From the IMG/VR virus record IMGVR_UViG_3300020414_000004: DNA of 36,467 nucleotides; one strand, written 5' to 3'. Shown here in pieces: positions 1 through 36,467 of this stretch. The stretch comes from a virus. Both the position numbers and the translations under genes were made by a program. Numbering within the stretch: the stretch's first letter is position 1; each line of letters opens with the position of its first letter. Below the pieces are notes generated by a model. It was not told the DNA's origin and ran no database searches. It saw only the letters and a list, made by a program, of their open reading frames with translations.

Positions 1-77
1 GACGACTACCAGGTAAACCAAATAGTAAGCTCGATAAAAGAGTTTGGCTTTACTAACCCTATCCTGGTAGATGACGA
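1..77. repeat. Terminal duplicate (left copy) marking circular closure or terminal redundancy
   Basis: gacgactaccaggtaaacc...ctggtagatgacga is identical to 36391-36467. Confidence 0.95.
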
Positions 78-1233
78 CAATTCAATCATAGCCGGGCACG
101 GCCGTTTAATGGCCGCACAAAAGTTAGGCCTAAAAGAAGTGCCAACAATTAATCTTGGCTATTTATCAGACGCACAAAAAAAAGCGTATGTCATAGCCGA
201 CAATAGATTAGCTCTAAATGCCGGGTGGGATTTAGATATGCTTAAACTTGAAATAGATGACCTGGGCGAACTAGACTTTGATGTCGATATCCTGGGTTTT
301 ACAGATGATGAACTAAAAAATATCCTGGCCGATAAAAATGACGGCCTGGTAGATGAAGACCAGGTACCAGATGTCCAGGACGAACATATTACGAAGCCTG
401 GAGACTTATGGATCCTGGGTGAGCACAGATTATTATGTGGCGACGCTACCCTGGATGCAGACTGCAATAAATTAATGAACGGCCAATTAGCTGATCTTGT
501 TTTTACGGATCCGCCTTACAATGTTGATTATTCTGGTGGTCGAACAGGAAATATAAACGGGAATGACTCACAAAATAAAAAAGAAAAAGGCTACGGCAAA
601 ATAAAGAACGACGCTATGTCGTCTGAACAGTTTAATGAATTCATTGCGGATATATTTGCAAACTATTATTCATATATGAAGTCATTGGCTTGTATATTTG
701 TTTGCCATCCAGACTCAGTAAGTGAGGCCAAGATAACATTCGAGGTTGAATTTGCTAAACATTTTAAAAAGTCCGCCAACATTATTTGGGATAAAGGCCA
801 GGCCGGTCTTGGCTACCAGGATTATCGGGCCCAACACGAGCCAATTCTGTTTGGTTGGAAGCAAGGCGACGGCCAACATTATTTTATCGGGGCCAGAGAT
901 AAGACGACTATTTGGAGAATACAAAAAGACTCAACTATGACTTATGTACACGCTACACAAAAGCCGGTAGCATTGACAGAGGAAGCCATTTTAAATCATA
1001 GTAAAGGTAGCGACATCGTTGCAGATTATTTTGGAGGCTCTGGCTCAACATTAATTGGTTGTGAAAAGTCTGGCCGCAAATGTTATTCAATGGAACTAGA
1101 TCCAAAATATTGCGACGTTATCATTAGACGCTACCAGGAATACACCGGCAAAGATGCAGTCTTAAAGGTCGGCGATAGTCAAACTACATTTAAAGAGTTA
1201 GAAAATGAAAGAGATAAAAAACCAGAAGAATAG
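1..1233 (+). CDS. ParB/Srx-like N-terminal domain fused to a beta-class DNA methyltransferase (3' part of the junction-spanning gene)
   Basis: Frame 1 is open from nt 1. IIAGHGRLMAAQKLG is ParB-like. FTDPPYN (motif IV) precedes DYFGGSGST (AdoMet motif I), the beta-class order of N6A/N4C enzymes. Confidence 0.85.
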   Translation, partial: DDYQVNQIVSSIKEFGFTNPILVDDDNSIIAGHGRLMAAQKLGLKEVPTINLGYLSDAQKKAYVIADNRLALNAGWDLDMLKLEIDDLGELDFDVDILGFTDDELKNILADKNDGLVDEDQVPDVQDEHITKPGDLWILGEHRLLCGDATLDADCNKLMNGQLADLVFTDPPYNVDYSGGRTGNINGNDSQNKKEKGYGKIKNDAMSSEQFNEFIADIFANYYSYMKSLACIFVCHPDSVSEAKITFEVEFAKHFKKSANIIWDKGQAGLGYQDYRAQHEPILFGWKQGDGQHYFIGARDKTTIWRIQKDSTMTYVHATQKPVALTEEAILNHSKGSDIVADYFGGSGSTLIGCEKSGRKCYSMELDPKYCDVIIRRYQEYTGKDAVLKVGDSQTTFKELENERDKKPEE

Positions 1234-1687
1234 TCCAGGTCGTAAAATGAAAGTGCTCACAACTGAGGATTGCGACAGGATCACACAACTGGCCGCAACT
1301 GGCTTGGGTATTATGGATATCTGTAAAACCTTAGGTATTTCCTGGAATGTATGGCAAAGGGAGTCAAAAAAAAGTGAAATAAGTGACGCATTAAAAAAGG
1401 GAGAAAGTTTGGGCCGGGCCAAGATTGTTAATAGCCTCTACCAAAATGCCCTAAAAGGAAGCGTCCCAAGTCAAATATTCTGGCTCAAAAACAAGGGTGG
1501 CGAGGGCGAATGGCAAGACCGCCAGGAGACCGAGATCAATATTAATTTAAAAGACGTCCTGGAAGACGCCAGGGCCAGGATAAATGATCAACAAAATAAC
1601 AACACCAGGATAATAGACGGCGAGAGCCTTGATATAACAGACATTCCCCAGGATAAGCATCTTCCTAAAAAGAATGTTAGTAGCTAA
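1205..1687 (+). CDS. terS: Terminase small subunit
   Basis: HTH-like LAATGLGIMDICKTLGISWNVW and the FWLKNKGGEGEWQDRQE motif are typical of small terminases. It sits upstream of terL. Alternative start at ATG 1247. Confidence 0.75.
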   Translation: MKEIKNQKNSPGRKMKVLTTEDCDRITQLAATGLGIMDICKTLGISWNVWQRESKKSEISDALKKGESLGRAKIVNSLYQNALKGSVPSQIFWLKNKGGEGEWQDRQETEININLKDVLEDARARINDQQNNNTRIIDGESLDITDIPQDKHLPKKNVSS

Positions 1688-1752
1688 TTGCTTATGATTA
1701 AGTCCCACAATTTTGAATTCTCTCCATCCACTTCAAAATGCTTAATCAGAAC

Positions 1753-1793
1753 GGGGGAGGATCTAACTCCTCAGATCCCCCCCCTATTTTTTT
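1753..1793 (+). terminator. Rho-independent terminator-like hairpin downstream of terS
   Basis: gggggaggatct / agatcccccccc forms a 12-bp stem with 1 mismatch and an 8-nt loop, followed by a T-run (tattttttt). Confidence 0.6.
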
Positions 1794-1868
1794 CCGGCAC
1801 CCCTTTTTTGTGCGACTTATGCACTAATTTTTTTTCTGTTTTCAAAGAGCCTGGAGAGTAGTAGCACT

Positions 1869-2219
1869 ATGAAACCGCAATCAGCTAAACAAAAAGGCCG
1901 TATATTACAAAAATGGTTTCGCAACCTATTAATTGAAATATTGGATTTAAACCCGGAAGACCTGGAGTCTAGGCCTATGGGTAGCCAGGGCGAAGATATT
2001 ATTATTGGATCCGAAAGTCGGGCCCGTTTCCCATATGCCACCGAATGCAAAAACCAGGAGGCCGTTAATGTTTGGAAAAGTTATATCCAGGCCCAGGATA
2101 ATAGCGGCAAATATGAGCCGCTACTTGTAATAAAGCGTAATAGATCGTTACCCCTTGTCGTGGTAGACGCCAAACATTTTGTCGAATTAGTAAGGAGAGC
2201 AAATGAACAGCAAATATGA
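1869..2219 (+). CDS. Small PD-(D/E)XK-type nuclease (Hjc/resolvase-like), free-standing between terS and terL
   Basis: 116 aa with a GEDIII...ECK arrangement (D-x(n)-E-x-K). It overlaps the terL start by 17 nt. Confidence 0.5.
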   Translation: MKPQSAKQKGRILQKWFRNLLIEILDLNPEDLESRPMGSQGEDIIIGSESRARFPYATECKNQEAVNVWKSYIQAQDNSGKYEPLLVIKRNRSLPLVVVDAKHFVELVRRANEQQI

Positions 2220-3729
2220 AAAGGAACTTATGGCTTCTATATGGTCGCCAGAAATTAAAGACAGTCCATTAAAATTTGTAAATTTTATTTTTGAGTGGGA
2301 TAAGCCAGGCACCCCCTTGCATAATTTTAAAGGGCCCCGTGCCTGGCAAAAAAAAATTTTACTAGATCTAGAACGGGCCATTGCTAGAAACCAGGGAGAT
2401 ATAACCCCGGAAATGTTTAGACAGGCCGTAGCATCGGGCCGTGGTATTGGAAAGTCGGCCCTGGTGTCCTGGCTAATTTTATGGATGTTATCTACCAGGC
2501 TAGGTAGTACGACTATTGTCACGGCAAACACCGAACAACAATTAAGGTCTAGGACTTGGGCCGAACTAGGTAAATGGTTAACCCTGGCTATTAATAGTCA
2601 TTGGTTTGCAAAAACAGCAACGACCATAAGACCGGCCCCCTGGTTTGATGAGGCCTTGAGAAAAGATTTAAAAATTGACACCGGATATTATTACGCCCAG
2701 GCACAATTATGGTCGGAAGAGTCCCCGGACGCTTTTGCCGGTGTGCACAGTAATTATGGAATTTTATTAATTATGGATGAGGCCTCTGGTATACCAGGCT
2801 CTATTTATTCAGTTAGTGAGGGTTTCTTTACAGAGCCAACGCCAGATAGATTTTGGTTTGCTTTTTCTAACCCCAGGAGAAATAGCGGCCCGTTTTATGA
2901 GTCATTTCATAGTGCCAAAAGTTATTGGAACACCGAGCAAATAGACTCCAGGACAGTCGAGGGTACAGACAAAGAATTATTTAATAAAATGCTAGAGCAG
3001 TACGGAGAAGAGTCTAGCGTGGCCAGGGTTGAGGTTATGGGAGAATTTCCCAGGTTTGATGACGACACAGTTATTGGAATGGATCTAATAAGGTCGGCCA
3101 TTGATAGAGATGTTGCACTTACCGGATCCGAACCGATAGTTTGGGGCCTTGATGTAGCCAGGCAAGGTAGCGACCAGAGTGCTTTATGTATTCGCCAGGG
3201 TAATCATATTCTCGAAATACGAACTTATAATTCGATGGACTTGATGCAATTATGTGGAGCGATAAAAAACAAATACGACGACGAGCAAACTAACAACAGG
3301 CCGCAAGAAATATTAATTGATGTTATTGGTATTGGGGCCGGGGTTGTTGACAGATTAGCCGAACAGAATTTACCTGTTAGAGGTATTAATGTTGCAGAGA
3401 GCCCGGCGTCTAGAAAGAATTATTTAAACCTTAGAGCCGAGTTATGGTTTGCGGTTAGAGATTGGTTGGCGGGGCGTGATGTCCGGATTCCCAACGACGA
3501 TGGTCTAGTGACAGAATTAGCCTCGCCAATTTACAAATATACATCAACGGGAAAAATTAAAATTGAGTCTAAAGAAGAAATGAGAAAAAGAGGAATCAAG
3601 TCGCCGGACAAAGCAGACGCCCTGGCACTAACGATGGGATCAAGTGCGGCCGCCTTTAGTGTAAAAGATTCTTTTATGGGATATAATTTTAAGAAACCCC
3701 TAAAGTCTAAAATTTACAGAGTAGGTTAA
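2203..3729 (+). CDS. terL: Terminase large subunit
   Basis: Walker A-like GRGIGKSALVS and Walker B LLIMDEASG, plus a C-terminal nuclease-like half. Typical size and position before the portal. Confidence 0.9.
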   Translation: MNSKYEKELMASIWSPEIKDSPLKFVNFIFEWDKPGTPLHNFKGPRAWQKKILLDLERAIARNQGDITPEMFRQAVASGRGIGKSALVSWLILWMLSTRLGSTTIVTANTEQQLRSRTWAELGKWLTLAINSHWFAKTATTIRPAPWFDEALRKDLKIDTGYYYAQAQLWSEESPDAFAGVHSNYGILLIMDEASGIPGSIYSVSEGFFTEPTPDRFWFAFSNPRRNSGPFYESFHSAKSYWNTEQIDSRTVEGTDKELFNKMLEQYGEESSVARVEVMGEFPRFDDDTVIGMDLIRSAIDRDVALTGSEPIVWGLDVARQGSDQSALCIRQGNHILEIRTYNSMDLMQLCGAIKNKYDDEQTNNRPQEILIDVIGIGAGVVDRLAEQNLPVRGINVAESPASRKNYLNLRAELWFAVRDWLAGRDVRIPNDDGLVTELASPIYKYTSTGKIKIESKEEMRKRGIKSPDKADALALTMGSSAAAFSVKDSFMGYNFKKPLKSKIYRVG

Positions 3730-3734
3730 AAGTT

Positions 3735-5870
3735 ATGGCACAAGAAGATAAGTACGAAATGGATGAGCAAGAATATGACTCACAAGAATTATCATCAATT
3801 ATTAAAACAGAAATGGACGACGCTCGTGACTTCATTGACCAAATTGGTCAAGAACGAGCAGAAAACACAGACTATTATTTAGGGGCCGAGCCTGTAAATG
3901 GTAGCGAACTCCAGTCAGAATATGTCAGCACAGATGTAAGAGACAGCGTTTTATTTATGATGCCGTCTATAATGCGTACTTTTTTCGGATCCAAAAAAAT
4001 TGTTGAATTTGTCCCCCAGGGGCCAGAGGACATAGAGTTAGCTGAACAACAAACCGACTATATAAATTATGTGATCACACAAAAAAATAATGGTTTCCAG
4101 GTTTTATATAATGCTTTCAAAGATGCACTAATTAGAAAGGCCGGGTTTGTTAAAGTTTATTATGACGAGGGCCTAACAGTCACAAACCACAGTTATACAA
4201 ATTTAACATCAGACCAACGCCAGGCATTACTCCAGGACATAGAGGTAGAAATTGTAAAAGAAAAAACCGAGGAAATGACCAGGGAGGTTTATGACGACAG
4301 CACGGGCCAACAAATAACACAATCTATCCCGCTAAGATACGACATAGACATTAGGCGTGTAAAAAAGAAAAACAAAGTTTGCGTTGATGCCGTGCCGCCA
4401 GAGGAAATTTTAATATCCAGGGACGCCAGGACAATAGAAACCGCAAGTTATGTGGCCCACCGCCGCTTGATGACAGTTTCAGAATTAGTATCGATGGGTT
4501 ATGACCTAGAAGAGGTCGAGCAATATGCCGGGGCCGGGAACTACTTAGATCCAGAAACGCAAAACGAAATACAGGCCAGAAACCCTTTTAATGATGTCAC
4601 GGGCCCAGATAGAGCAGACTCTAAAGAGGTCTATTATGTAGAGCACTATTTGCATTATGACCTAGACGGCGATGGCATAGACGAAAGAATTAAAGTTTGC
4701 ACGGCCGGAGAAGGTTGCAATATTTTATTTATAGAGCCTTGCGACGAGCTACCAATAGCAATGTTCTGTCCGGATCCAGAGCCACACACGGCGATAGGAT
4801 CGTGCCCGGCCGATTATTTGAAACCTATTCAAGCGGCTAAATCACAAATAATGAGAGATAGCCTGGACAGTTTGGGCCACGCTATTTTCCCCAGGTATGC
4901 AGTCGTTGAGGGCCAGGTAAATTTAGAAGACTTAATGAACACCGATATTGGTCAACCAATTAGGCAAAGAGCTCCTGGCCAAATTCAAGCATTGACGACA
5001 CCTTTTGTCGGCAAGGAAGCGTTCCCGGTTATGAACTACCTGGACAATGTTAAAGAAGAACGCACGGGAGTTTCTAAAGCATCGATGGGCCTAAACGCAG
5101 ACGCTTTACAATCATCAACAAAAGCGGCCGTCGTTGGCACAATGAGTGCGGCCCAGGGCCGTATAGAATTAATTTGTCGTCATTTTGCAGAAACAGGCCT
5201 TAAGCCATTATTTAGAATTGTAAATAATGTCGTAATAAGAAACCAAAACGAGCAAGATGTTTTCAAATTAAATAATAAATTTATTCCGGTAGATCCTAAA
5301 TTTTGGGATATCAATAAAGACATACAAGTCAATGTTGCTATTTCTAAATCAAGCGACGAGGAAAAAGCGGCCGTCCTGGCAAGTCTTTTAACCAAACAAG
5401 AGATGATTTTAGAAAAGTTAGGCCCTAACAACCCGTTAGTGACAGGCCAACAATACGCTAACGCTATGACTAAATTTATTGAGTTAGCCGGTTTTAAAGA
5501 CGCACAACAATTTATAAACACTCAAGTCGCCCCAACGCCACCACCTAGTCCGGAACAACAAAAACCAGACGCCCAGGAAATGTTGGCAATGGCCGAGAGT
5601 GAAAAAGCAAAAGCATCGGCAAATAAAGCTATCGTCGACGCTGAAAATGACAGACTTAAAATTCTTATGGATGACGATTTCAGAAGAGACCAGGCCCAGG
5701 CCGACGCAATATTAAAAGTGATGGAACTAAATGCTAAATATGGCACAGAACTAACTATGGCGGAAATAAATGCGTACCTGGAAAGAGATAAAGAAGAAAT
5801 TAGACAACGAAACAAGTCTGTCGGACTTAACGGATCATCTACTGGAAACCCTGGCGGCCAACCGCAGTAA
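3735..5870 (+). CDS. Portal protein
   Basis: 711 aa immediately after terL, with an acidic N-terminus and a long helical C-terminal barrel-like tail. Synteny supports the call. Confidence 0.85.
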   Translation: MAQEDKYEMDEQEYDSQELSSIIKTEMDDARDFIDQIGQERAENTDYYLGAEPVNGSELQSEYVSTDVRDSVLFMMPSIMRTFFGSKKIVEFVPQGPEDIELAEQQTDYINYVITQKNNGFQVLYNAFKDALIRKAGFVKVYYDEGLTVTNHSYTNLTSDQRQALLQDIEVEIVKEKTEEMTREVYDDSTGQQITQSIPLRYDIDIRRVKKKNKVCVDAVPPEEILISRDARTIETASYVAHRRLMTVSELVSMGYDLEEVEQYAGAGNYLDPETQNEIQARNPFNDVTGPDRADSKEVYYVEHYLHYDLDGDGIDERIKVCTAGEGCNILFIEPCDELPIAMFCPDPEPHTAIGSCPADYLKPIQAAKSQIMRDSLDSLGHAIFPRYAVVEGQVNLEDLMNTDIGQPIRQRAPGQIQALTTPFVGKEAFPVMNYLDNVKEERTGVSKASMGLNADALQSSTKAAVVGTMSAAQGRIELICRHFAETGLKPLFRIVNNVVIRNQNEQDVFKLNNKFIPVDPKFWDINKDIQVNVAISKSSDEEKAAVLASLLTKQEMILEKLGPNNPLVTGQQYANAMTKFIELAGFKDAQQFINTQVAPTPPPSPEQQKPDAQEMLAMAESEKAKASANKAIVDAENDRLKILMDDDFRRDQAQADAILKVMELNAKYGTELTMAEINAYLERDKEEIRQRNKSVGLNGSSTGNPGGQPQ

Positions 5871-6326: not shown

Positions 6327-6327
6327 T

Positions 6328-6606: not shown

Positions 6607-6615
6607 GAGGTAATA

Positions 6616-8074: not shown

Positions 8075-8076
8075 TT

Positions 8077-8569: not shown

Positions 8570-8577
8570 GGTGGCTA

Positions 8578-8607: not shown

Positions 8608-8626
8608 TTAACTAGAGGACACGAAT

Positions 8627-11620: not shown

Positions 11621-12004
11621 ATGGCCGGTTTTAGTGATTTTTTAGAGACGAAAGTCTTAGAACACGTATTTGGTGGCTCGGCTTATACAGCCCCAGGTAC
11701 TTTACATATAGCCCTTTACACGGCGGCACCATCAGATTCCGGAGGCGGAACTGAGGTATCTGGCGGAGCATATGCTCGACAAACGGCGACTTTTAATGTC
11801 AGTGGAAACACGGCAACTAACGCCGCAAATGTTGAATATGCTACGGCAACGGCAGATTATGGAACTGTGGTTGCGATGGGTATTTTTGACGCCGCTACAA
11901 GCGGAAACTTACTTGCATACGGAACGCTAACTACTTCAAAAAGTGTTAGTACCGGAGATGTGTTTAGATTTAACGCTTCTGCGATAGATATTACACTTAC
12001 ATAG
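11621..12004 (+). CDS. Small virion/tail-fibre-associated protein
   Basis: Strong SD aaggagg. 127 aa, rich in G/A/T/S, with a LHIALYTAAPSDSGGGTEVSGGAYARQ motif. Confidence 0.6.
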   Translation: MAGFSDFLETKVLEHVFGGSAYTAPGTLHIALYTAAPSDSGGGTEVSGGAYARQTATFNVSGNTATNAANVEYATATADYGTVVAMGIFDAATSGNLLAYGTLTTSKSVSTGDVFRFNASAIDITLT

Positions 12005-12016
12005 TAGAGGTCTTTA

Positions 12017-13594
12017 ATGTCCTCTGTTCCTTACGGCAGTTATTTCTATGGGCGTTCCAGGTACGGAACGCCTGGATACCATTTTGCTGAGTCAGATATA
12101 AGTGGCACGGCGGGTGTTAGTCAATCTCCTAGTTTGACTTTTACTATCCTGGGCCCGGAAACTGTTGCTCAAGGGACAAGTGCGTCCATCCAGGGTAATC
12201 ATATATTTCAACAAAGCACAAATATTAATGGTGTATCTGCTACAAACGCTGATTATCGTAGAGTAAGGCTAGGAATACCTCTTGCTATTTCTGAGGGATC
12301 CGGAAGCCTGGTACACGGAACACAGGTCGACCAGGCGGAAACATTTATCCTGGTCACTTCGGGTCATACTGCGACTGGAAATCAAATTGACCAGGGCCAG
12401 GTTTCTATTTCACTTGCATCGGCTTCTAACCAAACCGGCACACAAATTGATCTAGGAGCAACAAGTTTAAGCGAAACCTCGTCACAGACGGCCGTCGGCA
12501 CACAAATTGACTTAGGCCAGGTAAACCCTCAAGGAACATCATCGACAGTATCAGTAGGAACACAAATTGATTTAGGGGCCACAACCTCTATAAACGAGGT
12601 AGCAAATGTTTTAACCTTAAATCCACAATATCAAAGTCAATATATAGACTTTTATGTTGAGCCTTATGGAGGAGGGAATGCTTTTTCTCCATATAGTCCA
12701 GGATCTCCCAGGTCGGATATTATTTTAAAACCAGGTTTTACAATTAGGTTATATCAAGAAGATGCTACAAACGCCGGGCATCCAATATTTTTATCGGCCG
12801 TGCCAGATGGCGTCCATAATGCACAAAATGCACATATTTCTTTAAGAAAAGATAGTAGCGGGAATGAATATCTACAAATGTCGGCCGCCTCAGACAATGA
12901 TCAAAACCCAGGAGGAACAGGCACAAAACAAAGAAGAACTATTTATATTAATAATGCTGATACATCTGGCCAGGCCCCAACATATACGGGCAATGCTTAT
13001 CCTTATGTTTATCCAACAACAACAGTCACAAAAGATCCACAAGTCACGGCCACTATTGGATCCGTTGTTGTAAATGGCCTTAATATTTTGACAATAAATG
13101 GTTTACCGGCTTATCAAGCGGTAGCGGATACAAGCACAGGCACGGCAAATGCAACCGGAGCCACATTTAAAGCACTTTCAGCGAATGGAACTCCACACAC
13201 AACAGCTCCGGCATCTGCTTTTGTTTTTGACTCTTTATTCTGGGTAGGAGCAACATATGTTGGTACACCTGGAACAACCGGGGCCTATTTAACAGTCAAT
13301 AACATTACGGCCACTACACCACAATTATATTATTTTTGTGCAAACCACCCTGGTATGGGAGGCCAGGCCGATATAGGATCCGTGCAACCAGGCGTTGAAG
13401 CCACATTCTTGTTAGTAGGCTCGACCAATGTCAATTCGGAATCTGGACTTTTATCAAGTGGTATTAGGCGATATTTTCTAGAGGCTTCAATGTCGTCGTC
13501 CTCTAGTATTTTAAGTGATGGCGGTTTAAAATGGACATTGCAAAGTGCAACCGCTACCACCTGGACACAACAAAAAATTGCACGAACTCCATAA
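12017..13594 (+). CDS. Tail-fibre-like protein with five 20-aa tandem repeats and a cupredoxin-like motif
   Basis: GTQIDLG repeats, and the motifs GFTIRLYQEDATNAGHPIFL and YYFCANHPGMGG. Confidence 0.65.
   Translation: MSSVPYGSYFYGRSRYGTPGYHFAESDISGTAGVSQSPSLTFTILGPETVAQGTSASIQGNHIFQQSTNINGVSATNADYRRVRLGIPLAISEGSGSLVHGTQVDQAETFILVTSGHTATGNQIDQGQVSISLASASNQTGTQIDLGATSLSETSSQTAVGTQIDLGQVNPQGTSSTVSVGTQIDLGATTSINEVANVLTLNPQYQSQYIDFYVEPYGGGNAFSPYSPGSPRSDIILKPGFTIRLYQEDATNAGHPIFLSAVPDGVHNAQNAHISLRKDSSGNEYLQMSAASDNDQNPGGTGTKQRRTIYINNADTSGQAPTYTGNAYPYVYPTTTVTKDPQVTATIGSVVVNGLNILTINGLPAYQAVADTSTGTANATGATFKALSANGTPHTTAPASAFVFDSLFWVGATYVGTPGTTGAYLTVNNITATTPQLYYFCANHPGMGGQADIGSVQPGVEATFLLVGSTNVNSESGLLSSGIRRYFLEASMSSSSSILSDGGLKWTLQSATATTWTQQKIARTP
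12317..12616 (+). repeat. Five in-frame 60-bp tandem repeats (conserved 24-bp head, variable 36-bp tail)
   Basis: Heads begin at 12317, 12377, 12437, 12497 and 12557. The last three read gg(c/a)acacaaattga(t/c)(c/t)tagg. Confidence 0.85.
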
Positions 13595-13609
13595 AAAATA
13601 GGAAATATT

Positions 13610-14758
13610 ATGAGCGATACATTTACTAATAATCTAAATTTAACAAAACCGGCCGTTGGCGGATCTACGGACACCTGGGGTACAAAAATAAATAATGACC
13701 TAGACGCTGTTGATGCAATTTTTTCAGCTACGGGAACTGAGGTTAATGTTAGATTTAATACTGCAAATTTTGATGATAATAAAAAGGCGTTGTTTGGTAC
13801 AGGCGATGATCTTGAAATTTATCATAATGTAAATAATTTTATAGCCGGGACTCCAAAACTACAAATTCAATCAGACGACACGACTGATGGTGTTGAGATA
13901 GGATCTTTCACAGGATCAGAGGTAATGGCTAAATTTACAAAAGACGGGGCCGTCAGTCTTTACCACGATAATTCTTTAAAACTTGCCACGGCATCAAGCG
14001 GAGTTTCCATAACTGGAGACATAGCTGTTTCTGGTACAGTCGATGGAGTCGATATTGCGGCCTTGAACACAACTGTTGCCGGAAAAGCAAACACAAGTAG
14101 CCTGGCAACTGTCGCAACCTCTGGGGCCTATTCTGATTTAACAGGAGCTCCAACTATTCCTACGAATACTAACCAACTTACTAATGGGGCCGGGTTTACT
14201 ACCTACTCATCAAACCAGGCGACAGATTCAACTAGCTCAGTCAGTTTTAATAATGTTGGAATAAATGCAAATGGCCATTTAACTTTAGGTACCGGAACTT
14301 GGACTGGAGAAACCTCTGGAAAAATTCAAAGGCACTCAACCCATTTATATTTCCAAACAGATAACAGTGGTAATTTTATTTTTAGAAACTCAAACGGAGG
14401 CGAGGGTTTTTATGTAGTAGCTTCAAGCGGAGCGGTAGTGAGCTCAAATAACATTACGGCTTATTCTGATATTCGTCTGAAAAAAGATGTCAAAACCATT
14501 GAAAATGCTCTTGATAAAGTGACTAAATTGCGAGGTGTTGAATATACCAGGATTGAAAACGAGGAAAGAGAAATAGGTGTTATTGCACAAGAAGTGAAAG
14601 AGGTCATTCCAGAACTAGTCACAGTAAACGAAAACTCTGATAGTTTTGATAATGGAATAAAAGATATTCACACGATGAAATATCAAAACACAGTCGGTTT
14701 GCTTATTGAAGCTATTAAAGAGTTAGAGAAAAAAGTTTCAGATTTAGAGGGTAAATAA
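13610..14758 (+). CDS. Tail fibre with a C-terminal S74-type intramolecular chaperone (self-cleaving) domain
   Basis: YSDIRLKKDVKTIENALDKVTKLRGVEYTR...IGVIAQEVKEVIPELV. Confidence 0.8.
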   Translation: MSDTFTNNLNLTKPAVGGSTDTWGTKINNDLDAVDAIFSATGTEVNVRFNTANFDDNKKALFGTGDDLEIYHNVNNFIAGTPKLQIQSDDTTDGVEIGSFTGSEVMAKFTKDGAVSLYHDNSLKLATASSGVSITGDIAVSGTVDGVDIAALNTTVAGKANTSSLATVATSGAYSDLTGAPTIPTNTNQLTNGAGFTTYSSNQATDSTSSVSFNNVGINANGHLTLGTGTWTGETSGKIQRHSTHLYFQTDNSGNFIFRNSNGGEGFYVVASSGAVVSSNNITAYSDIRLKKDVKTIENALDKVTKLRGVEYTRIENEEREIGVIAQEVKEVIPELVTVNENSDSFDNGIKDIHTMKYQNTVGLLIEAIKELEKKVSDLEGK

Positions 14759-15372
14759 TGCCAGTACCTAGTAGTGGAGCGATATCCTTAAATCAATTTC
14801 ACGTTGAAGCCGGTGGCACAAGCGGCACCACTTGTACTATTAATGACTCCGATATCAGAGCTCTAATTGGAAAATCATCTGCAACCACAATGTCTTTCAA
14901 TGAATGGTACGGGGCCACTTCTTCAGCATCAAACGGCTCGTCAATTACTTGTGGAACTCATAGTACGACCGGAAAATATGCCGCCACTTATAGAGGTTAT
15001 GCCGATAATGCGGCTATTGGCGGCGGAGCGGCGATGGGATCTTATACTGATAGATCATTCACAGTAAATGGAAACACTTTTGACTTGTTAGGAATTATGA
15101 GCAACACGGGAGGAATTTTCCAATTACACTCAATTTATCTTTCCGGAAATTACAATAATCAATCTTTATCGTCGGTCACAGGATTTAGATATTTAAGAAA
15201 TGGCTCTGCTTATGTTTTTGACAGTAATATGACTGATTACTTAGGGAGTGCAATGGTCGGACTTTATAACTCGACTAGAAACGACACAGTATGGTCGGCC
15301 CTCTCATCATCAAACACAAGTATTTCTTCGCTTCCTTCAAGCGGAACTGTCAATTTTTATTGGAGTAATTAA
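14758..15372 (+). CDS. Putative tail-fibre/host-recognition protein
   Basis: 204 aa, ATGA-coupled to the fibre gene. S/T/G/N-rich, with an N-terminal SGAISLNQF...MSFNEWYG motif. Confidence 0.55.
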   Translation: MPVPSSGAISLNQFHVEAGGTSGTTCTINDSDIRALIGKSSATTMSFNEWYGATSSASNGSSITCGTHSTTGKYAATYRGYADNAAIGGGAAMGSYTDRSFTVNGNTFDLLGIMSNTGGIFQLHSIYLSGNYNNQSLSSVTGFRYLRNGSAYVFDSNMTDYLGSAMVGLYNSTRNDTVWSALSSSNTSISSLPSSGTVNFYWSN

Positions 15373-15467
15373 TGGTAGACGAAAAAGAAAAAGAGCAACC
15401 TAGTCCAAGTCCGGAAAACATTTTCGTTCCGTCAGAAATGCCAATAACAGAAACAGAGGAAATATAA
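15372..15467 (+). CDS. 31-aa acidic peptide, hypothetical
   Basis: MVDEKEKEQPSPSPENIFVPSEMPITETEEI, with TAATG overlaps at both ends. Confidence 0.3.
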   Translation: MVDEKEKEQPSPSPENIFVPSEMPITETEEI

Positions 15468-16180
15468 TGAGTTTAATTTATGAGTTTGTTTGTAAGGACG
15501 ATTCCTGGGTACATAATTTTGACAACGAAATTCAAGTCACAATCGTTGAGGGGAAAATTGGCGACAAAATAACAAGGGAAAAACTTGAGGACAATGTTGA
15601 CGGCGACAACCTGGTTTATGACAGTCAAAGCGACAAAATTTTTAAAAGGCCTAATAAAATGATTTGCATCCAGGGCAGTATAGAGATGAATAACTTTTGG
15701 TCAAACGAGGGCATAGAGGCCACGGACATTGATAGGCTAAAAGAATTAACTGCTAATGACAAAAATAAAACCGGTGTATATAGCGAAAGCACAACCGCCG
15801 ATGCAATTTCAAACAAAGCATTTAACAGCACTTACCAATTTAATTGTGATTATGATGTTTTGTCCCCAATGTCTAGAGAGTGGGCCCTGGCGACACCTGG
15901 AACATTAAAAGCAACGTCAACCGACACCAGGCTTTTTTGTATGCTAACTGAACGATCAGATTATCAAATAAAAATTTTAGATATATTGCCTGGCGACTTA
16001 AAAACAATAAACAGAGATCAAAGCAAAACACTAAGTTATGTTTTCTTTTCTCAAAAATGCTCAATAAGAAACGGGGCCGGAGTTTGTGATCAATATTCTG
16101 TCAAAAAATTACAAAGCGACACTATTGATATAAGAAACCTGGGCGATCTAACCGCAAGAATTATTTTAATAGAGAGGTAA
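15467..16180 (+). CDS. Hypothetical protein (accessory cassette, member 1)
   Basis: 237-aa ORF with no motif I recognise. Confidence 0.6.
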   Translation: MSLIYEFVCKDDSWVHNFDNEIQVTIVEGKIGDKITREKLEDNVDGDNLVYDSQSDKIFKRPNKMICIQGSIEMNNFWSNEGIEATDIDRLKELTANDKNKTGVYSESTTADAISNKAFNSTYQFNCDYDVLSPMSREWALATPGTLKATSTDTRLFCMLTERSDYQIKILDILPGDLKTINRDQSKTLSYVFFSQKCSIRNGAGVCDQYSVKKLQSDTIDIRNLGDLTARIILIER

Positions 16181-26120: not shown

Positions 26121-27194
26121 ATGCAAACTAGAAAAACAGATAACAAAAATACTAACCTGGTTATGATCACACGCCATTTTAAGGACGATATTTCATTGCC
26201 AACTTATACAACCTATTATGCAAAACTGTATGAAAAGGGCCGCAAAAACCCCAGGTTAAAAAAAATAGGAATATCAACCGAGCAAGTTAGCCTGGCGGTT
26301 ATGCGGGAACGATGCCGCTTGTACATTGAGGAACACGGCCGTTTCGGTAGGTCAAGCCACACACTTGACCAGGCTTTTTATGAAATCTATTTAGGCGAAC
26401 TAAAAAAGAAATCAGCTAAAACAATCGACGACATAAAAAGAAATTATGAAAAAGATATAAAGCCTCATTTTGGCAAAATGCTTATGAGCGATATTGATTC
26501 GCCAATGATATTGTCCTGGTTTAATAAATTAACCGAACGAACTGAGGGCGGGGCCAACCATTGTTTGTCAATTTTAAAAGCTATGTTTACTTTATGTATG
26601 GCCCTAGGGGTTTGTAAGCACAACCCTTGTTTGCCTATTAAGAAGAACCCGGACAAGGAAAGAACTAGGTCATTTACCCAGGGGGAACTAATTGCTTTTA
26701 GGGCCGCATTAAAAGAAGCTAAGTCCAGGTCAATTTATGCCTGGAGTTTTATTATGCTAATGTTTTTGACTGGGGCCCGAAAAGGCGAACTAGCCAGGGC
26801 AACTTGGGGCGACATAAAAGGCGAAAGCATAGTTTTAACGGATCACAAAACCAAACATAAAACCGGCAAGGATAGATATATTTATTTAAACGACCTTGCA
26901 AAAGCTGTAATAAATAATTTACCAGTCGGCCAGGATCACGAAACAATTTTAAAAATCAAGGATCCTAGAACTGTTTGGGAAACTATGATGCGAAAAGCAA
27001 ATATAAAAGATTTTAGAATGCACGACTTAAGGCACAATTTTGCCTCGGCCGGTGTAAATAGTGGCTTAGATATTATTAGAACGGCCGCATTAACGGGCCA
27101 TATGAGTTTGAATTCTATGAAAAGGTATCAAAGGCCTAATATTGAAAGGAAGTTAAAAGACACAAAAATAATTGAAAATCAATTAACCAATTAA
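26121..27194 (+). CDS. int: Tyrosine recombinase (phage integrase)
   Basis: LTGARKGEL (Arg), HDLRHNFAS (His-x-x-Arg), GHMSLNSMKRY (His ... Tyr). Confidence 0.9.
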   Translation: MQTRKTDNKNTNLVMITRHFKDDISLPTYTTYYAKLYEKGRKNPRLKKIGISTEQVSLAVMRERCRLYIEEHGRFGRSSHTLDQAFYEIYLGELKKKSAKTIDDIKRNYEKDIKPHFGKMLMSDIDSPMILSWFNKLTERTEGGANHCLSILKAMFTLCMALGVCKHNPCLPIKKNPDKERTRSFTQGELIAFRAALKEAKSRSIYAWSFIMLMFLTGARKGELARATWGDIKGESIVLTDHKTKHKTGKDRYIYLNDLAKAVINNLPVGQDHETILKIKDPRTVWETMMRKANIKDFRMHDLRHNFASAGVNSGLDIIRTAALTGHMSLNSMKRYQRPNIERKLKDTKIIENQLTN

Positions 27195-27631: not shown

Positions 27632-27829
27632 ATGGAAAGCTCTATAAAATTATTAACAACTAAAGAGGTCGCCGCCTTTTTAAAGATCAGTCCAGTGACT
27701 TTAGAAATGTGGAGAGCCGAAAACAAAGGCCCAAAATTTATTAAAGTGGGCCGCTATGTGAGATATAGCACGACTGATTTAGCAGAATATGTGAGGAGAC
27801 AAACCCGTGGAACTGATCCAGGCCAATAG
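27632..27829 (+). CDS. Excisionase/AlpA-family HTH DNA-binding protein
   Basis: LLTTKEVAAFLKISPVTLEMWRAENKGPKFIKVGRYVRYSTTDLAEYV. Confidence 0.75.
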   Translation: MESSIKLLTTKEVAAFLKISPVTLEMWRAENKGPKFIKVGRYVRYSTTDLAEYVRRQTRGTDPGQ

Positions 27830-27842
27830 GATTTATGTAGTT

Positions 27843-28586: not shown

Positions 28587-28588
28587 AT

Positions 28589-29931: not shown

Positions 29932-29948
29932 TTTATAAGGAGAAGAAA

Positions 29949-30482: not shown

Positions 30483-30484
30483 GA

Positions 30485-30850: not shown

Positions 30851-30852
30851 AA

Positions 30853-32697: not shown

Positions 32698-33040
32698 CGA
32701 CCATATGTGTACCCACAAAGGCCCTCGTTTGCGACCATAGGGGTACCCACATAGACATATATAGGAACATATATATTGGCACGGCCCTGGAGGGGCCGGG
32801 CCAATTCAGTAGGAGTGTGAATTGATTGTGGATAATGCGGCCAGGGGGAAGGCGAGTGCCAGGGAAAAAGATTGTTATATCTTTGAGTTAGGCGGAAGCC
32901 TTACCAGGGGAAGACAGCGTATAAAAATTAGGTACAGTTTTTAATAGGACAATTAGTACTATTAAAAGTTGGTAATAATCGAATACAGTTTAAAGGAACA
33001 TTAAACAAACATTTAATAAACAGAAAAGGAGGAAACTTAA
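32697..33040. promoter_or_regulatory. Candidate replication origin / regulatory non-coding region
   Basis: 21-bp direct repeats at 32697-32717 and 32731-32751 (19/21 identical), an AT-rich tract at 32752-32777, a 12-bp-stem hairpin at 32776-32804, and three CCAGGG(G)AA copies at 32841, 32859 and 32904. Confidence 0.5.
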
Positions 33041-33121
33041 ATGTGCAATTTAATAAAAGATGTAGATTTATATAAGGCTCGTCAATGGGGCGTTATGATA
33101 AACGGGATGATGGGCCCGTGA
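33041..33121 (+). CDS. 26-aa ORF with a strong SD (possible leader peptide)
   Basis: aaaggagg lies 7 nt before the ATG. Sequence: MCNLIKDVDLYKARQWGVMINGMMGP. Confidence 0.3.
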   Translation: MCNLIKDVDLYKARQWGVMINGMMGP

Positions 33122-33492
33122 ATGTAGGTCTAAAGATGCTTGAGTCGATTGATTACAGTTTGTGTCACGAAGACTCACCCGAACATAGATTTTATACTCA
33201 GTCTATGTTGCACAATATGATTTGCAATTATTTATTTTTAAACAAGGACGTTAACCTGGAGAGAATTTGCCGACATATACCAAAGCGTATCGGTGGCCGC
33301 ACGACTATTTATGAAGTGCTTACCCAGGGTTTAGGATCCGGTTTATTTAATAAGCAAAGTGACGACCAGGATAAAAGATTAAGAATTTATACCCTGGCAG
33401 ACGGGTTATGGCATCATATGGAAAGGTATTGGCTTAAGCCTTTTGAGGATACTGGGGAAGAAGATGAAAGGTTATTATCGAAGAAAAAGTAA
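33085..33492 (+). CDS. Hypothetical protein
   Basis: 135-aa ORF. The real start may be ATG 33136 (MLESIDY...). Confidence 0.55.
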   Translation: MGRYDKRDDGPVNVGLKMLESIDYSLCHEDSPEHRFYTQSMLHNMICNYLFLNKDVNLERICRHIPKRIGGRTTIYEVLTQGLGSGLFNKQSDDQDKRLRIYTLADGLWHHMERYWLKPFEDTGEEDERLLSKKK

Positions 33493-33931
33493 TTTTGATA
33501 ATTATTGGTGGATCACAACAAGTCTGCCAGGCAAAGATAGTGCTGAAATAAACATACGAGTAGCAAACCATTTTAAATCATACGGGCCATTAAAAGCGTC
33601 CGTATGGTTTTGGTTTAGAAATAAAGTAGCAAACAGAAAAGATTTATCAAGCCGGGACAAAATGGTTGCCTGGGCGATTGCTGAAAGATATCGAGGTCAA
33701 TCATTTAGTACCTGGGACAGCTTTACTTATTTAGCCGCAATGGTGGGCCTTAATAGAAAAACAGTGCACAAGGCTATCGTCGAACTAATGGCAAAGAATG
33801 TTATTTGGGTTGTCCTGGAGGGCCAGGAAAAGATTGGCGTTAGCAAATTAGTCAGTAAGCGACAAAAGAAACATATAATTTTATGCGGCCTTAATTTTAT
33901 CCTGGCCGAGGAGATAAACAAAAATGAATAA
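33464..33931 (+). CDS. Winged-helix DNA-binding protein (possible replication initiator/regulator)
   Basis: LAAMVGLNRKTVHKAIVELMAKNVIWVV is HTH-like. ATG 33464 follows ggggaag. Confidence 0.5.
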   Translation: MKGYYRRKSNFDNYWWITTSLPGKDSAEINIRVANHFKSYGPLKASVWFWFRNKVANRKDLSSRDKMVAWAIAERYRGQSFSTWDSFTYLAAMVGLNRKTVHKAIVELMAKNVIWVVLEGQEKIGVSKLVSKRQKKHIILCGLNFILAEEINKNE

Positions 33932-34139
33932 GAAGAGTTTTTTAGAAAGCATAAGCGATACTTTTATTGGCTTATGTATTAACTTTCCCCTGGGGTTTAC
34001 TGTCCTGGTAATAATGACCTGGTTTACAAGCAATCCTTTATATATTAGCGGGGCCCAGACCATAGTCTTGACAATTACTGCAATTATAAGGCGGTACCTA
34101 ACAAGAGAGTTCTTTCGGATCCGTGTAAATGCAGACTAA
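33924..34139 (+). CDS. Small two-TM membrane protein
   Basis: FIGLCINFPLGFTVLVIMTWF and ISGAQTIVLTITAIIRRY. Confidence 0.5.
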   Translation: MNKKSFLESISDTFIGLCINFPLGFTVLVIMTWFTSNPLYISGAQTIVLTITAIIRRYLTREFFRIRVNAD

Positions 34140-34220
34140 TGATGTTATGATCATAAAAGATTTGGAGCCTGGACACACACACTCCCCTTAATTCTCCCAA
34201 AAAGGTCTAGGCTCCACCAA

Positions 34221-34403
34221 CTACATTTTCAAGCTAATCAAAGTCAGTAAACAAATTAATAAAATATTTGTCAGAAATAAATTTAGGCAAAGGATAGTGT
34301 GGTACCACACCCAACGAGTCTTATAAGCATTCTCTATATTAACCCTGGTGTCAGTATCCACTAGCAACCTCGGCAAAATAAATAATTGTATTAACGCCAA
34401 CAT
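34221..34403 (-). CDS. Hypothetical hydrophobic ORF (doubtful)
   Basis: Track ORF only. It overlaps the better-supported 34351-34455 ORF. Confidence 0.2.
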   Translation of the reverse strand: MLALIQLFILPRLLVDTDTRVNIENAYKTRWVWYHTILCLNLFLTNILLICLLTLISLKM

Positions 34404-34455
34404 ATGTCGCCATTATTAAAAGCAGTAAGCAAAACCAAAATAACTGTTCGTTCAT
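34351..34455 (-). CDS. 34-aa membrane peptide, hypothetical
   Basis: MNEQLFWFCLLLLIMATYVGVNTIIYFAEVASGY, with an ATGA overlap with the upstream ORF. Confidence 0.35.
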   Translation of the reverse strand: MNEQLFWFCLLLLIMATYVGVNTIIYFAEVASGY

Positions 34456-34559
34456 TTATTCTTTGCCTCTTTAATTTTATATTTGGCTTTAAGTCTTTCT
34501 AAAGACTTTTCCGAAATGCGGCCGTTAGGCCAAGACTTAGTCTTAATTTCTTTTTTCAT
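34452..34559 (-). CDS. 35-aa basic peptide, hypothetical
   Basis: MKKEIKTKSWPNGRISEKSLERLKAKYKIKEAKNK, with ATGA overlaps on both sides. Confidence 0.4.
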   Translation of the reverse strand: MKKEIKTKSWPNGRISEKSLERLKAKYKIKEAKNK

Positions 34560-34636
34560 ACTAAATATATTTCCATATTGTAAACAAAGGCCACAATAAT
34601 TATGGCCATAAATAAAATTATAAAATTCTTAATCAT
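34556..34636 (-). CDS. 26-aa hydrophobic peptide, hypothetical
   Basis: MIKNFIILFMAIIIVAFVYNMEIYLV, with ATGA overlaps on both sides. Confidence 0.35.
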   Translation of the reverse strand: MIKNFIILFMAIIIVAFVYNMEIYLV

Positions 34637-34935
34637 TTTTTTAACATCTCTTTCCAGGCCTTTTTAATTTTTGCCTGGCTTAGTTTATCAAAGACCTCAA
34701 GGGGATAAATATTTCTATCGCCAAAGCCAATGTCGTCCTTAACCTGGTATGAAGCAAAAGTCTTAACATACTCACGGCCGTCAATTACCTGGATGTCATA
34801 TAAATAACAATCCGTGTGAATTTCACAGCATTTCATTTTATTAAAGTCATCGGGCCCAACTGTCGTTGCATCCCCGGCAATATCTATCCACATTAAATTT
34901 AATTTTTTATGGTAGCGTTCTCCTATTTTAATCAT
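34633..34935 (-). CDS. Hypothetical early protein
   Basis: 100 aa from ATG 34935 (MIKIGERYHKK...). The track start at 34941 is a TTG. Confidence 0.6.
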   Translation of the reverse strand: MIKIGERYHKKLNLMWIDIAGDATTVGPDDFNKMKCCEIHTDCYLYDIQVIDGREYVKTFASYQVKDDIGFGDRNIYPLEVFDKLSQAKIKKAWKEMLKK

Positions 34936-35107
34936 CCTCAATCAACCCACCTTTCGCCTGGTACTTGTCATATAAAAAATCTAAATTTGTGATCACATAA
35001 TCATTATAGGTAATTGAGTCCTCTTGATAGGCCCGTCTTTCCCTATTGGCCTCTAGCCACATTAAATGGCAAAAAGATTTAAAAGATATTTCTAATTGAT
35101 CTGTCAT
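34928..35107 (-). CDS. 59-aa hypothetical early protein
   Basis: MTDQLEISFKSFCHLMWLEANRERRAYQEDSITYNDYVITNLDFLYDKYQAKGGLIEDD, just under the track cut-off. Confidence 0.5.
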   Translation of the reverse strand: MTDQLEISFKSFCHLMWLEANRERRAYQEDSITYNDYVITNLDFLYDKYQAKGGLIEDD

Positions 35108-35253
35108 TTACCCTGGCCTCTATATTTTTTAAATGAGCGTTTGCGGTTTTTATTCATTGTACTAAAGCCAATGTTGCCTAGACCTTGACTGGTCTTTTTT
35201 CCCCTGGATCCACAAACGCTCTGATGTTTGGTTTCTCTGTATTTATTAACCAT
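35104..35253 (-). CDS. 49-aa basic hypothetical protein
   Basis: MVNKYRETKHQSVCGSRGKKTSQGLGNIGFSTMNKNRKRSFKKYRGQGK. ATGA overlap downstream. No clear SD. Confidence 0.35.
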   Translation of the reverse strand: MVNKYRETKHQSVCGSRGKKTSQGLGNIGFSTMNKNRKRSFKKYRGQGK

Positions 35254-35265
35254 AGGAGTGCCGGG

Positions 35266-35532
35266 TCAAAATCGATGGGGGGGAGTTAGGGGAGTAAGAT
35301 CTTGCCCGACACCTTGTATTCTTGTTTCTAATTGGTAATGAATATATTTATTTATGGCCTGTAAAAGTCGCTCGGCTTCCGGCTTTATGTCTGTCTTATT
35401 ACCGGTTAATAAATATCTACTCATTTTTGCATAAATTTGCGGTAATGCCTGGGGGCCGTCATTTATAAACTCGTCTTTATGAGCCTCAAAAAAATCCTGG
35501 GCCAAGGCATTCAAGTCGCCTGTATTAACCAT
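35266..35532 (-). CDS. Hypothetical early protein
   Basis: SD aggagg before ATG 35532 (MVNTGDLNALAQDFF...). Confidence 0.6.
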   Translation of the reverse strand: MVNTGDLNALAQDFFEAHKDEFINDGPQALPQIYAKMSRYLLTGNKTDIKPEAERLLQAINKYIHYQLETRIQGVGQDLTPLTPPHRF

Positions 35533-35734
35533 AGTTTTCCTCCTGGATATTATGACCATTGAGTGTGTTGTGATTGACCTGGGCCCCTCTTTGCAACTCC
35601 TCGTGCTTTTGTCTTAACTCCAGGGCCTTATCTTTAAGCTCTTGCTCAAACTGTTTTGGGATCCACACAGTAGATCTAACCAAACCCTTTTCTTTGTTTC
35701 TTTGAGCATACCTCTCCTGGTTTTTATATTTCAC
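35525..35734 (-). CDS. Putative ribbon-helix-helix type DNA-binding regulator
   Basis: GTG start with SD aggagag. ERYAQRNKEKGLVRSTVWIPKQFEQELKDKALELRQ resembles RHH/copy-control regulators. Confidence 0.45.
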   Translation of the reverse strand: MKYKNQERYAQRNKEKGLVRSTVWIPKQFEQELKDKALELRQKHEELQRGAQVNHNTLNGHNIQEENYG

Positions 35735-35817
35735 AATTCTCTCCTGTAATGTTGGGGGGTGTTTTTAGAACTAAAATATTCCTATTCATAAAATAGTCGC
35801 TCAAATGGTCGTCCTAT

Positions 35818-35991
35818 TTAGTAGTCTATTATTTCTAAGTTATTCAATCGTTCTTTTTTAGTTCGGATTTTGGATATTTCTAAATCCCAAAGAACGGCCT
35901 TATTGGCCTCACGATCTATTCGTGTGATCAAACAGAAATAAGTAGTCCCTAATATTCTAACCTTTTGACCTGGTCTGAATGTTAGCTCCAC
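35818..35991 (-). CDS. 57-aa hypothetical early protein
   Basis: GTG start overlaps the stop of the upstream gene. Sequence: VELTFRPGQKVRILGTTYFCLITRIDREANKAVLWDLEISKIRTKKERLNNLEIIDY. Confidence 0.35.
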   Translation of the reverse strand: MELTFRPGQKVRILGTTYFCLITRIDREANKAVLWDLEISKIRTKKERLNNLEIIDY

Positions 35992-36176
35992 TCTCCTCTC
36001 GCTTTTTCGTGTAAATTAATTAGATACTTTTTTTGTACCAGGACATCATAACCAGACTCCTTAAGGCTCCTGGCTTTATCTTCGGCTAATTTTTCATCTC
36101 TAAATTGATTCCAAATGTAGCCGCCTAAATCTGGCATAAAATATCCAACCTTGTAAATTACTTGAGTATGTTCCAT
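35982..36176 (-). CDS. First gene of the leftward early operon, hypothetical
   Basis: Strong SD aaggagg before ATG 36176. 64 aa. Confidence 0.65.
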   Translation of the reverse strand: MEHTQVIYKVGYFMPDLGGYIWNQFRDEKLAEDKARSLKESGYDVLVQKKYLINLHEKARGEWS

Positions 36177-36312
36177 TTATAACCTCCTTAAGTAATGTAG
36201 TCGTATTATAACTGATATAGTACGACCACAACAAGTGTCCGGGCCTCGGACTGTTCACGGATTCTAAAATCACTTAAAATATATCGGATAATTTTTTTAT
36301 GGATGGAACACA
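36177..36312. promoter_or_regulatory. Divergent early control region
   Basis: 136-nt non-coding region between the leftward operon and the ParB-MTase gene. Contains the inverted repeat gtagtcgta-N15-tacgaccac (36197-36229). Confidence 0.45.
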
Positions 36313-36467
36313 ATGACAAACGCAGCACAAGAAATTAAAACTCTCCAGGTAAAGGATTTAATTCCTTACGCCAGGAACAGCAGAACGCACGACGACTACC
36401 AGGTAAACCAAATAGTAAGCTCGATAAAAGAGTTTGGCTTTACTAACCCTATCCTGGTAGATGACGA
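36313..36467 (+). CDS. 5' end of the ParB/Srx-like domain-DNA methyltransferase fusion gene (continues at nt 1 across the junction)
   Basis: ATG at 36313 gives MTNAAQEIKTLQVKDLIPYARNSRTHDDYQVNQIVSSIKEFGFTNPILVDD, in frame with nt 1 through the 77-nt overlap. Confidence 0.8.
   Translation, partial: MTNAAQEIKTLQVKDLIPYARNSRTHDDYQVNQIVSSIKEFGFTNPILVDD
36391..36467. repeat. Terminal duplicate (right copy)
   Basis: Identical to nt 1-77. Confidence 0.95.

Follow-up and report, generated by a model that had tools for sequence, protein, structure and literature searches.

Why should a phage genome accumulate, and not shed, a short palindrome of the restriction type? Phage genomics treats such words as liabilities to be lost, and CCWGG (W, A or T) goes the opposite way in IMG/VR virus record IMGVR_UViG_3300020414_000004, a marine phage genome that we analyzed over its whole length of 36,467 nt (hereafter, the window). 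An earlier note, made from the letters alone, had put the genome-wide excess at roughly 10-fold on the basis of manual counts in four segments. Exact counting reproduced these (14 sites in 1-1200, 16 in 2221-3420, 20 in 12017-13594, and 17 instead of about 16 in 34200-36176), found every quoted example site at its coordinate, and yielded 315 CCWGG sites in total (170 CCAGG and 145 CCTGG), i.e., one per 116 bp or 8.6 per kb, and 8.9 times the expectation from base composition. Since two of these sites sit in a 77-nt terminal repeat, the 36,390-bp circle holds 313. The density is uniform throughout (3-15 per kb), and the A and T forms track base composition (p=0.33), in line with the balance described in the note. 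As detailed below, our results show a positive drive of moderate strength, acting at the DNA level on whole sites of classical methyltransferase words, that is lineage-specific and reversible, in a genome that is under intense pressure from restriction.

The excess was confirmed against every null model but one, a maximal-order Markov model that is saturated by the motif itself. Expected counts rose from 35.3 under base composition to 50.4 under a dinucleotide (order 1) model and 62.2 under a trinucleotide (order 2) model, corresponding to observed/expected ratios of 8.9, 6.25, and 5.07, respectively, and dinucleotide-preserving shuffles contained 50.5 ± 6.9 sites, with a maximum of 73. The order 3 model, with 171 sites expected, lowers the ratio to 1.84, which lies inside the 2-fold limit that the earlier note had chosen for this comparison. 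This is, however, a poor null, because 75-95% of all CCWG and CWGG words already lie inside the pentamer (77% of CCAG, 83% of CAGG, 95% of CCTG, and 75% of CTGG). Codon-aware shuffles, the other yardstick in the note, clearly upheld the excess: the 266 genic sites compare with 69.1 ± 5.8 after within-gene shuffling of synonymous codons (3.9-fold; z=34) and with 44.6 ± 6.4 after shuffling of codon order (~6-fold). The gaps between sites are Poisson-like, with a coefficient of variation of 1.08, the same as for random placement, which rules out a regular spacing. No flanking consensus was detected around the sites, positions -8 to +8 being near background composition, and the most frequent 6-8-mers were only overlaps of CCWGG and GGCC, so that a longer hidden motif or a repeat resembling repetitive extragenic palindromic (REP) or miniature inverted-repeat transposable (MITE) elements was likewise rejected.

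Both the location and the codon context of the sites point to DNA instead of protein as the level of action, as the earlier note had proposed. Across the 13 stretches of strict intergenic sequence (2,879 nt), 22 CCWGG were found against 2.2 expected (10-fold), alongside 23 GGCC against 3.5 expected; a single one of these stretches, at 32698-33084, includes four CCWGG and five GGCC (e.g., GGCCCTGGAGGGGCCGGGCC at ~32783). Within genes, the motif is built by synonymous choices that run against an otherwise AT-rich codon usage: 74 of 94 CTG codons and 89 of 135 CAG codons stand in a C_G context, compared to 11 of 338 TTA and 6 of 342 CAA codons. Overall, 48% of all synonymous opportunities to form CCWGG in the window are used, including 163 of 369 in the register xxC-CWG-Gxx (hyphens mark codon boundaries), 57 of 141 in xCC-WGG, and all 46 Pro-Gly pairs (CCW-GGN). 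For comparison, we used relatives retrieved through a terminase profile search, which returned 80 loci from a large family of marine phages of ~35-37 kb. In 74 other loci of this family, the same three frames are filled at 3% (xxC-CWG-Gxx), 4% (xCC-WGG), and 91% (CCW-GGN), and the odds of a realized CCWGG in the window exceed those in these loci 25-fold and 16-fold in the two frames that are informative. If treated as a mutation-selection balance, as is done for codon bias, these values would correspond to a scaled advantage of ~3 per site, alike in both informative frames.

The outer C and the inner CWG of the motif are chosen jointly, in an all-or-none fashion, which shows that it is the complete pentamer that is driven at the DNA level. 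Codons preceding a usable Leu/Gln-G context end in C in 55% of cases versus 22% elsewhere, with even larger shifts for individual amino acids (Ile ATC, 50% vs. 11%; Pro CCC, 53% vs. 6%). When both features are cross-tabulated, 163 contexts have both the outer C and CWG, 159 have neither, 41 have the outer C only, and 6 have CWG only, for an odds ratio of ~105. In the large terminase, two or more residues were replaced in the CCWGG-rich lineage alone, each time giving rise to a CCAGG. The first (2305-2309, + strand) reads K-P-G where sister lineages have K-D-G or K-S-G, and the second (2794-2798, + strand) reads I-P-G instead of the I-P-A of sisters, while the Pro-Gly dipeptide occurs in none of the 74 other family terminases. 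Pro-Gly dipeptides are 2.7 times more common in the window than in the family loci, in a comparison of gene sets that are not matched. A constraint at the level of RNA or translation, such as a codon-pair preference or pairing between CCAGG and CCUGG in mRNA, could also account for most sites sharing one reading frame, and phage spacers are transcribed as well. Yet spacers carry just as large an excess, minus-strand genes have CCWGG in the same xxC-CWG-Gxx register, and the drive is equally strong in each of the three frames, the dominant one simply offering the widest choice of synonymous codons. There was no sign of pairing between A and T forms either, since neighboring sites display no preference for A-form/T-form pairs (p=0.14-0.61), and we regard such a constraint as scarcely credible.

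CCWGG belongs to a wider palindrome landscape that is extreme in both directions. Three other words are raised, namely GGCC (308 sites, 5.2-fold), GGATCC (34 sites, 6.6-fold, amounting to a quarter of all GATC in the window), and CCGG (143 sites, 2.4-fold), and we could show that all three are driven up independently of CCWGG, on both strands and in spacers. Genes contain 263 GGCC, compared to 112 after synonymous shuffling, mostly placed as xxG-GCC: among 208 Ala GCC codons whose preceding codon can end in G, 144 are preceded by G. Excesses of GGSCC, CGGCCG, and GGGCCC follow from that of GGCC. Conversely, over 20 palindromes of the restriction type have been removed entirely or nearly so, including CATG (0 observed/128 expected), GCGC (0/59), CGCG (0/59), GGWCC (0/35), ACSGT (0/52), GTWAC (1/77), GCWGC (4/35), and ACGT (18/128). 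These purges are supported by synonymous shuffles (z = -6 to -11) and extend to CASTG, CAATTG, ATGCAT, CGATCG, GCCGGC, CCCGGG, CTGCAG, CAGCTG, CTCGAG, TTCGAA, GCTAGC, CTATAG, and others, with many hexamer palindromes at zero, which implies that the restriction repertoire of the host population is very large. Neither the purged nor the additional raised words, nor the reversal of CCWGG bias in sister lineages described below, had been part of the earlier note. The asymmetric pair GCWGG/CCWGC is also nearly missing from the window (1 vs. 72 expected) and is at zero in the relatives L001/L091, L002, and L003, with normal frequencies in the remaining family. We know of no restriction specificity matching this pair, which may represent an uncharacterized non-palindromic target.

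Avoidance of restriction sites in phage genomes is reported in the literature (Sharp 1986; Rocha 2001; Rusinov et al. 2015 and 2018), and the window itself fits this pattern with its purged words, as do sister phages that avoid CCWGG; for CCWGG, GGCC, and GGATCC in the window, in contrast, the sign is reversed. Over-representation of a site has been defined elsewhere as a Karlin-type ratio (Kr) of at least 1.23, a value seen in ~1% of control site-genome pairs (Rusinov et al. 2015, PMC4687349), on a scale that is not directly comparable with the ratios used here.

The comparison with related phages that the earlier note had called for indicates that the CCWGG excess is lineage-specific and reversible between sister lineages. 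Most family loci have CCWGG at ~1.2 times expectation and the same GC content as the window, while the excess reaches 8-10-fold in the window, L006, and L001/L091. Relatives at 95% identity (L006/L014, L015, and L005) carry the full word pattern. L006 nonetheless still has 11 CATG versus none in the window, so that the purge of CATG from the window was completed within ~5% divergence; at the corresponding window positions (936, 1341, 1583, 1802, 6412, 13422, 13823, 14800, 29839, 33117, and 36008), the window reads CACG, CGTG, TATG, and similar. At 78% identity, L001/L091 share the raised words (CCWGG 8.4-fold, GGCC 5-fold, CCGG 2.5-fold, and GGATCC 4-fold) without avoiding GCGC (1.7-fold), CGCG (1.0-fold), or ACGT (0.74-fold). 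The 73%-identical sisters L002 and L003 are opposite in CCWGG, with one site observed for 5 expected and four for 7 expected, respectively, and they keep 0 of 52 and 1 of 61 of the window's sites, against a chance expectation of 30%.

Individual CCWGG sites turn over freely. Retention of sites in the 5%-diverged L006 is 0.86, compared to 0.87 for the non-enriched GATC, and in the 21%-diverged L091 it is 0.51, compared to 0.34 for other SSWSS pentamers (S, C or G; p=0.0013), with 91 sites found only in the window and 45 only in L091. Polarizing these gains and losses with an outgroup left only two usable events. Other parts of the family are biased toward different words: among relatives L016-L089, the largest clade has CCGG, CCSGG, TCGA, and CGWCG at zero, with GCGC at 3-4.5-fold and CGCG at 2-3-fold, and L076 and L081 have GATC at 2.5-2.9-fold, such that the palindromes that are purged or raised differ from lineage to lineage. 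Some relatives encode a C5-cytosine methyltransferase between the primase-helicase and a helix-turn-helix (HTH) gene (L039, 6316-7599; L042). The GCGC excess is independent of such a phage gene, as it is the same in relatives of the GCGC-rich clade that lack it. Finally, the mosaic locus L090 (1-21515) has 4-11 CCWGG per kb in its early/replication module (0-11 kb) and 0-4 per kb in its structural module, which suggests that motif density records the history of each module. With only the early-gene module being rich, L090 does not support an independent origin of the excess.

One could envision that CCWGG is raised passively, if the G+C demanded by proteins and by a GC content of 40% piled up in the few words still permitted. 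In favor of such a by-product, total SSWSS is only 1.24 times expectation, GC content equals that of relatives, and the shortfall in GCWGG, CCWGC, GCWGC, and GGWCC matches roughly half of the surplus in CCWGG. However, when synonymous codons were swapped in simulations barred from creating 24 purged words, genic CCWGG relaxed from 266 to 78-88 and GGCC from 263 to 127-146. L091 has the same 8.4-fold excess without avoiding GCGC, CGCG, or ACGT, L002 and L003 avoid GCWGG/CCWGC and GGWCC yet have no CCWGG excess, and the GC-ending codons used in CCWGG sites are otherwise shunned. The constrained swaps and L091 together lead us to reject compensation for site avoidance, and a by-product of this kind appears very improbable.

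What might then drive a lineage toward CCWGG and its sisters away from it? Our favored explanation, to which we give somewhat less than an even chance, is that host restriction and modification impose on the phage a rapidly evolving palindrome landscape with two sides, of which CCWGG is the positive one. Under this explanation, CCWGG and GGCC would bear a cytosine methyl mark on phage DNA in the present host population, deposited by an orphan or defense-island methyltransferase of the host or, less likely, by the phage's own ParB-methyltransferase, with no cognate nuclease present. Modified sites would be favored in bulk, each contributing a little. A possible benefit is that defenses that read such marks and attack even motif-free DNA, following the logic of DISARM or BREX, would take DNA rich in marks for self; wherever a host restricts CCWGG or leaves it unmethylated, the optimum would flip to zero sites, as seen in the sister lineages, and a DISARM-like logic does predict this all-or-none bistability between sisters. 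DISARM restricts motif-free DNA, more strongly so when unmethylated motifs are present and less when motifs are methylated, and CCWGG is the mark of class 2 DISARM, as 5-methylcytosine (m5C; bioRxiv 10.1101/2021.12.28.474362). The motif is thus identical to the one raised in the window, absence of the motif gives no escape and methylated motifs relieve restriction, which could reward dense marks. By contrast, class 2 DISARM was described in Bacillus and not in marine hosts, and the published work does not report motif enrichment in phages. Methylated CCWGG and GGCC were found only in viral genomes, and not in prokaryotic metagenome-assembled genomes (MAGs), in a study of marine methylomes (PMC9516812), the methods of which call only N4-methylcytosine (m4C) and N6-methyladenine (m6A), suggesting that the mark in question would be m4C; CCWGG with m4C was also reported in viral MAGs (PMC8919816). 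The more specific proposal that CCWGG saturation is positively selected, with the modified word serving as a dose-dependent "self" mark, is one that we put forward tentatively and consider more probably wrong than right.

Several observations weigh against these proposals. The only methyltransferase of the phage looks adenine-specific, with a DPPY motif and a resemblance to CcrM and YhdJ, and homologues of it occur in relatives without CCWGG enrichment. The host could not be placed: no integrated copy was found inside any host contig across 74 data blocks, and two scans of genome collections returned no host match. Several different words are raised together, which would require several marks or a more general process, and equilibrium sequence patterns cannot separate weak selection from biased conversion. 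In addition, we are not aware of any phage in which a restriction-type word is under positive selection.

The main rival to a selective origin is a ratchet in which host repair, coupled to methylation, resolves near-cognate mismatches to the methylatable word, either through very-short-patch (VSP)-like repair or through methyl-directed mismatch repair as proposed for the highly iterated palindromes (HIPs) of cyanobacteria. The phage would gain nothing from this, and an equal excess would be present in the host genome; we consider it a serious possibility, while deeming it rather unlikely. It is consistent with a pattern that is independent of frame and strand, with the random spacing and weak constraint on single sites, and with the fact that AT-rich synonymous states need only AT-to-GC transitions to become sites (e.g., T-TTA-G or T-CAA-G to C-CTG-G or C-CAG-G). 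Similarly, CTTGG is the commonest alternative state of CCWGG in the 95%-identity relative (8 of 27), and no DNA polymerase was found among the genes of the phage, which would therefore rely on host replication and repair.

VSP repair by Dcm and Vsr in Escherichia coli (Bhagwat and McClelland 1992; Glasner et al. 1995) provides one precedent. Its footprint involves the same word and a DNA-level process tied to cytosine methylation, with a reportedly modest CCWGG excess, well below 2-fold, and a selective loss of CTWGG and CCWAG. In the window, the excess is 5-9-fold and these two words are not selectively drained, with 51 CTWGG against 50 expected from composition and 48 CCWAG against 54, as the earlier note had suspected from two CTAGG occurrences. 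Relative to the family, all one-off neighbors are drained alike (ACWGG 0.52, TCWGG 0.52, CAWGG 0.47, and CTWGG 0.64 times the level in relatives), GCWGG, at 0.01, being low for a separate reason of its own, and CTWGG is lowered no further than its transversion neighbors (0.47-0.52). Moreover, VSP repair should act on the inner C only, but the outer C is under an equally strong drive, and neither a dcm-type C5 methyltransferase nor vsr is among the phage genes. The suggestion in the note that VSP-type T:G repair acts during lysogeny can thus be discarded as a sole cause.

The second precedent is Elhai's model for HIPs (PMC4390886). HIP1 (GCGATCGC) and alternate HIPs such as GGCGCC, GCCGGC, and GCSGC are, like the words raised in the window, GC-rich palindromes of the methyltransferase type, over-represented many-fold in genes and spacers, swapped for one another in particular lineages, and linked to methylation in this proposal (PMC4390886). 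The phage word differs in being 5 bp and not 6-8 bp long, in lying on a 36-kb virus and not a chromosome, in reaching 8.6 per kb, far above the ~1 per kb predicted by the HIP model, and in flipping to avoidance in close relatives. CCWGG also does not provide the G-mC context that the HIP model requires, and one-off variants are not biased toward the first and last positions (140 outer vs. 234 inner). Finally, a repair process would need a strong bias to produce site-creating amino-acid replacements in a conserved terminase.

A function of CCWGG unrelated to methylation, e.g., as an orientation-free Chi-like signal, an enhancer of recombination or uptake, or a protein binding site, seems unlikely. 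A high density everywhere without positional pattern would suit the protection of any DNA end from RecBCD or AddAB, five-base Chi sequences exist in some bacteria, and a connection of HIP1 with recombination and with the efficiency of transformation has been reported. Signals of the Chi and uptake types are, however, asymmetric and oriented, while CCWGG is palindromic with forms that follow base composition, and single sites are hardly conserved. The sister phages are actively depleted in CCWGG, which is how restriction targets behave, and the co-enriched words (GGCC, CCGG, and GGATCC here, plus GCGC, CGCG, and GATC in other clades) are classical methyltransferase sites.

A cause encoded by the phage itself was considered and rejected, given the lack of C5 methyltransferase and Vsr genes and the presence of the ParB-methyltransferase in non-enriched relatives. 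This methyltransferase, the single DNA methyltransferase of the phage, is a fusion of ParB_N and N6_N4_Mtase domains, with CcrM- and YhdJ-type adenine methylases as best matches; its 5′ end lies at 36313-36467 (+ strand), and the remainder, which includes the DPPY motif, continues over the circular junction at positions 1-1233 (+ strand). Neither names nor structures among 8000 homologues and the PDB were informative about its specificity. M.SPRI, a multispecific cytosine methyltransferase of a Bacillus phage, targets GGCC, CCGG, and CCWGG, the same three words raised in the window, but unlike Bacillus phages with M.SPRI, the phage studied here has no C5-methyltransferase gene. Such Bacillus phages tolerate these words and are not known to accumulate them.

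Hyper-abundant methyltransferase-type palindromes in cyanobacterial chromosomes and a weak CCWGG excess in E. coli were already known; we found no report in the literature of such an excess in a virus, at such a density, or with a bias of opposite sign in sister lineages. Within one phage family, at 20-30% divergence, many words are completely lost, others are gained 5-9-fold, and CCWGG bias changes sign between sisters; as a rough estimate, at least a quarter of the substitutions on this branch created or removed such words. For uncultured ocean phages, oligonucleotide bias thus becomes a sensitive trace from which host modification and restriction can be read. If the sites are in fact methylated, this phage would offer a natural system for asking whether methyl marks are selected in bulk or made by repair, the same question that hangs over cyanobacterial HIP sequences, and its abundance in Tara Oceans assemblies should make read-level methylation and population data obtainable. 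If CCWGG does act as a self mark, avoidance would not be the sole evolutionary answer to sequence-reading defenses, marine hosts would possess defenses that respond to how dense the marks are, and the kind of defense that a phage faces would show in the sign of a motif bias.

The window contains a complete genome of 36,390 bp, either circular or terminally redundant, the direct repeat of positions 1-77 at 36391-36467 being an assembly overlap. It encodes an SU10-type portal, an SU10-type major capsid protein, a large terminase, and terS, the latter adjoining the methyltransferase gene together with a RusA-like resolvase. Also encoded are a Toprim/AAA_25 primase-helicase, a PD-(D/E)XK nuclease, and an AAA_24 protein. 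A tyrosine integrase (26121-27194, + strand) is accompanied by an excisionase-like HTH_17 gene (~27632-27829), both being signs of temperate potential in this probable marine SU10-like temperate podophage. Scans for tRNAs and Rfam families did not reveal an attachment (att) site. The same genome was assembled independently, at 99.6-99.9% identity, from many Tara Oceans and other marine samples, and in the 74 data blocks in which it was found it always formed free contigs of ≤50 kb. No close cultured phage was found, the best terminase match being 50% identical.

A 74-kb contig, L094, which encodes a ParB-methyltransferase 60% identical to that of the window, was considered as a lead to the host and proved to be an unrelated phage of 53% GC with a different terminase, indicating that this type of methyltransferase moves between phage families. 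The tail-fiber module of the window (12000-16000) is hypervariable, with 12-14% divergence from the 95%-identical L006 versus 1-5% elsewhere, and the longest CCWGG-free stretch of the genome, 957 nt at 14547-15504 (+ strand), lies inside this module.

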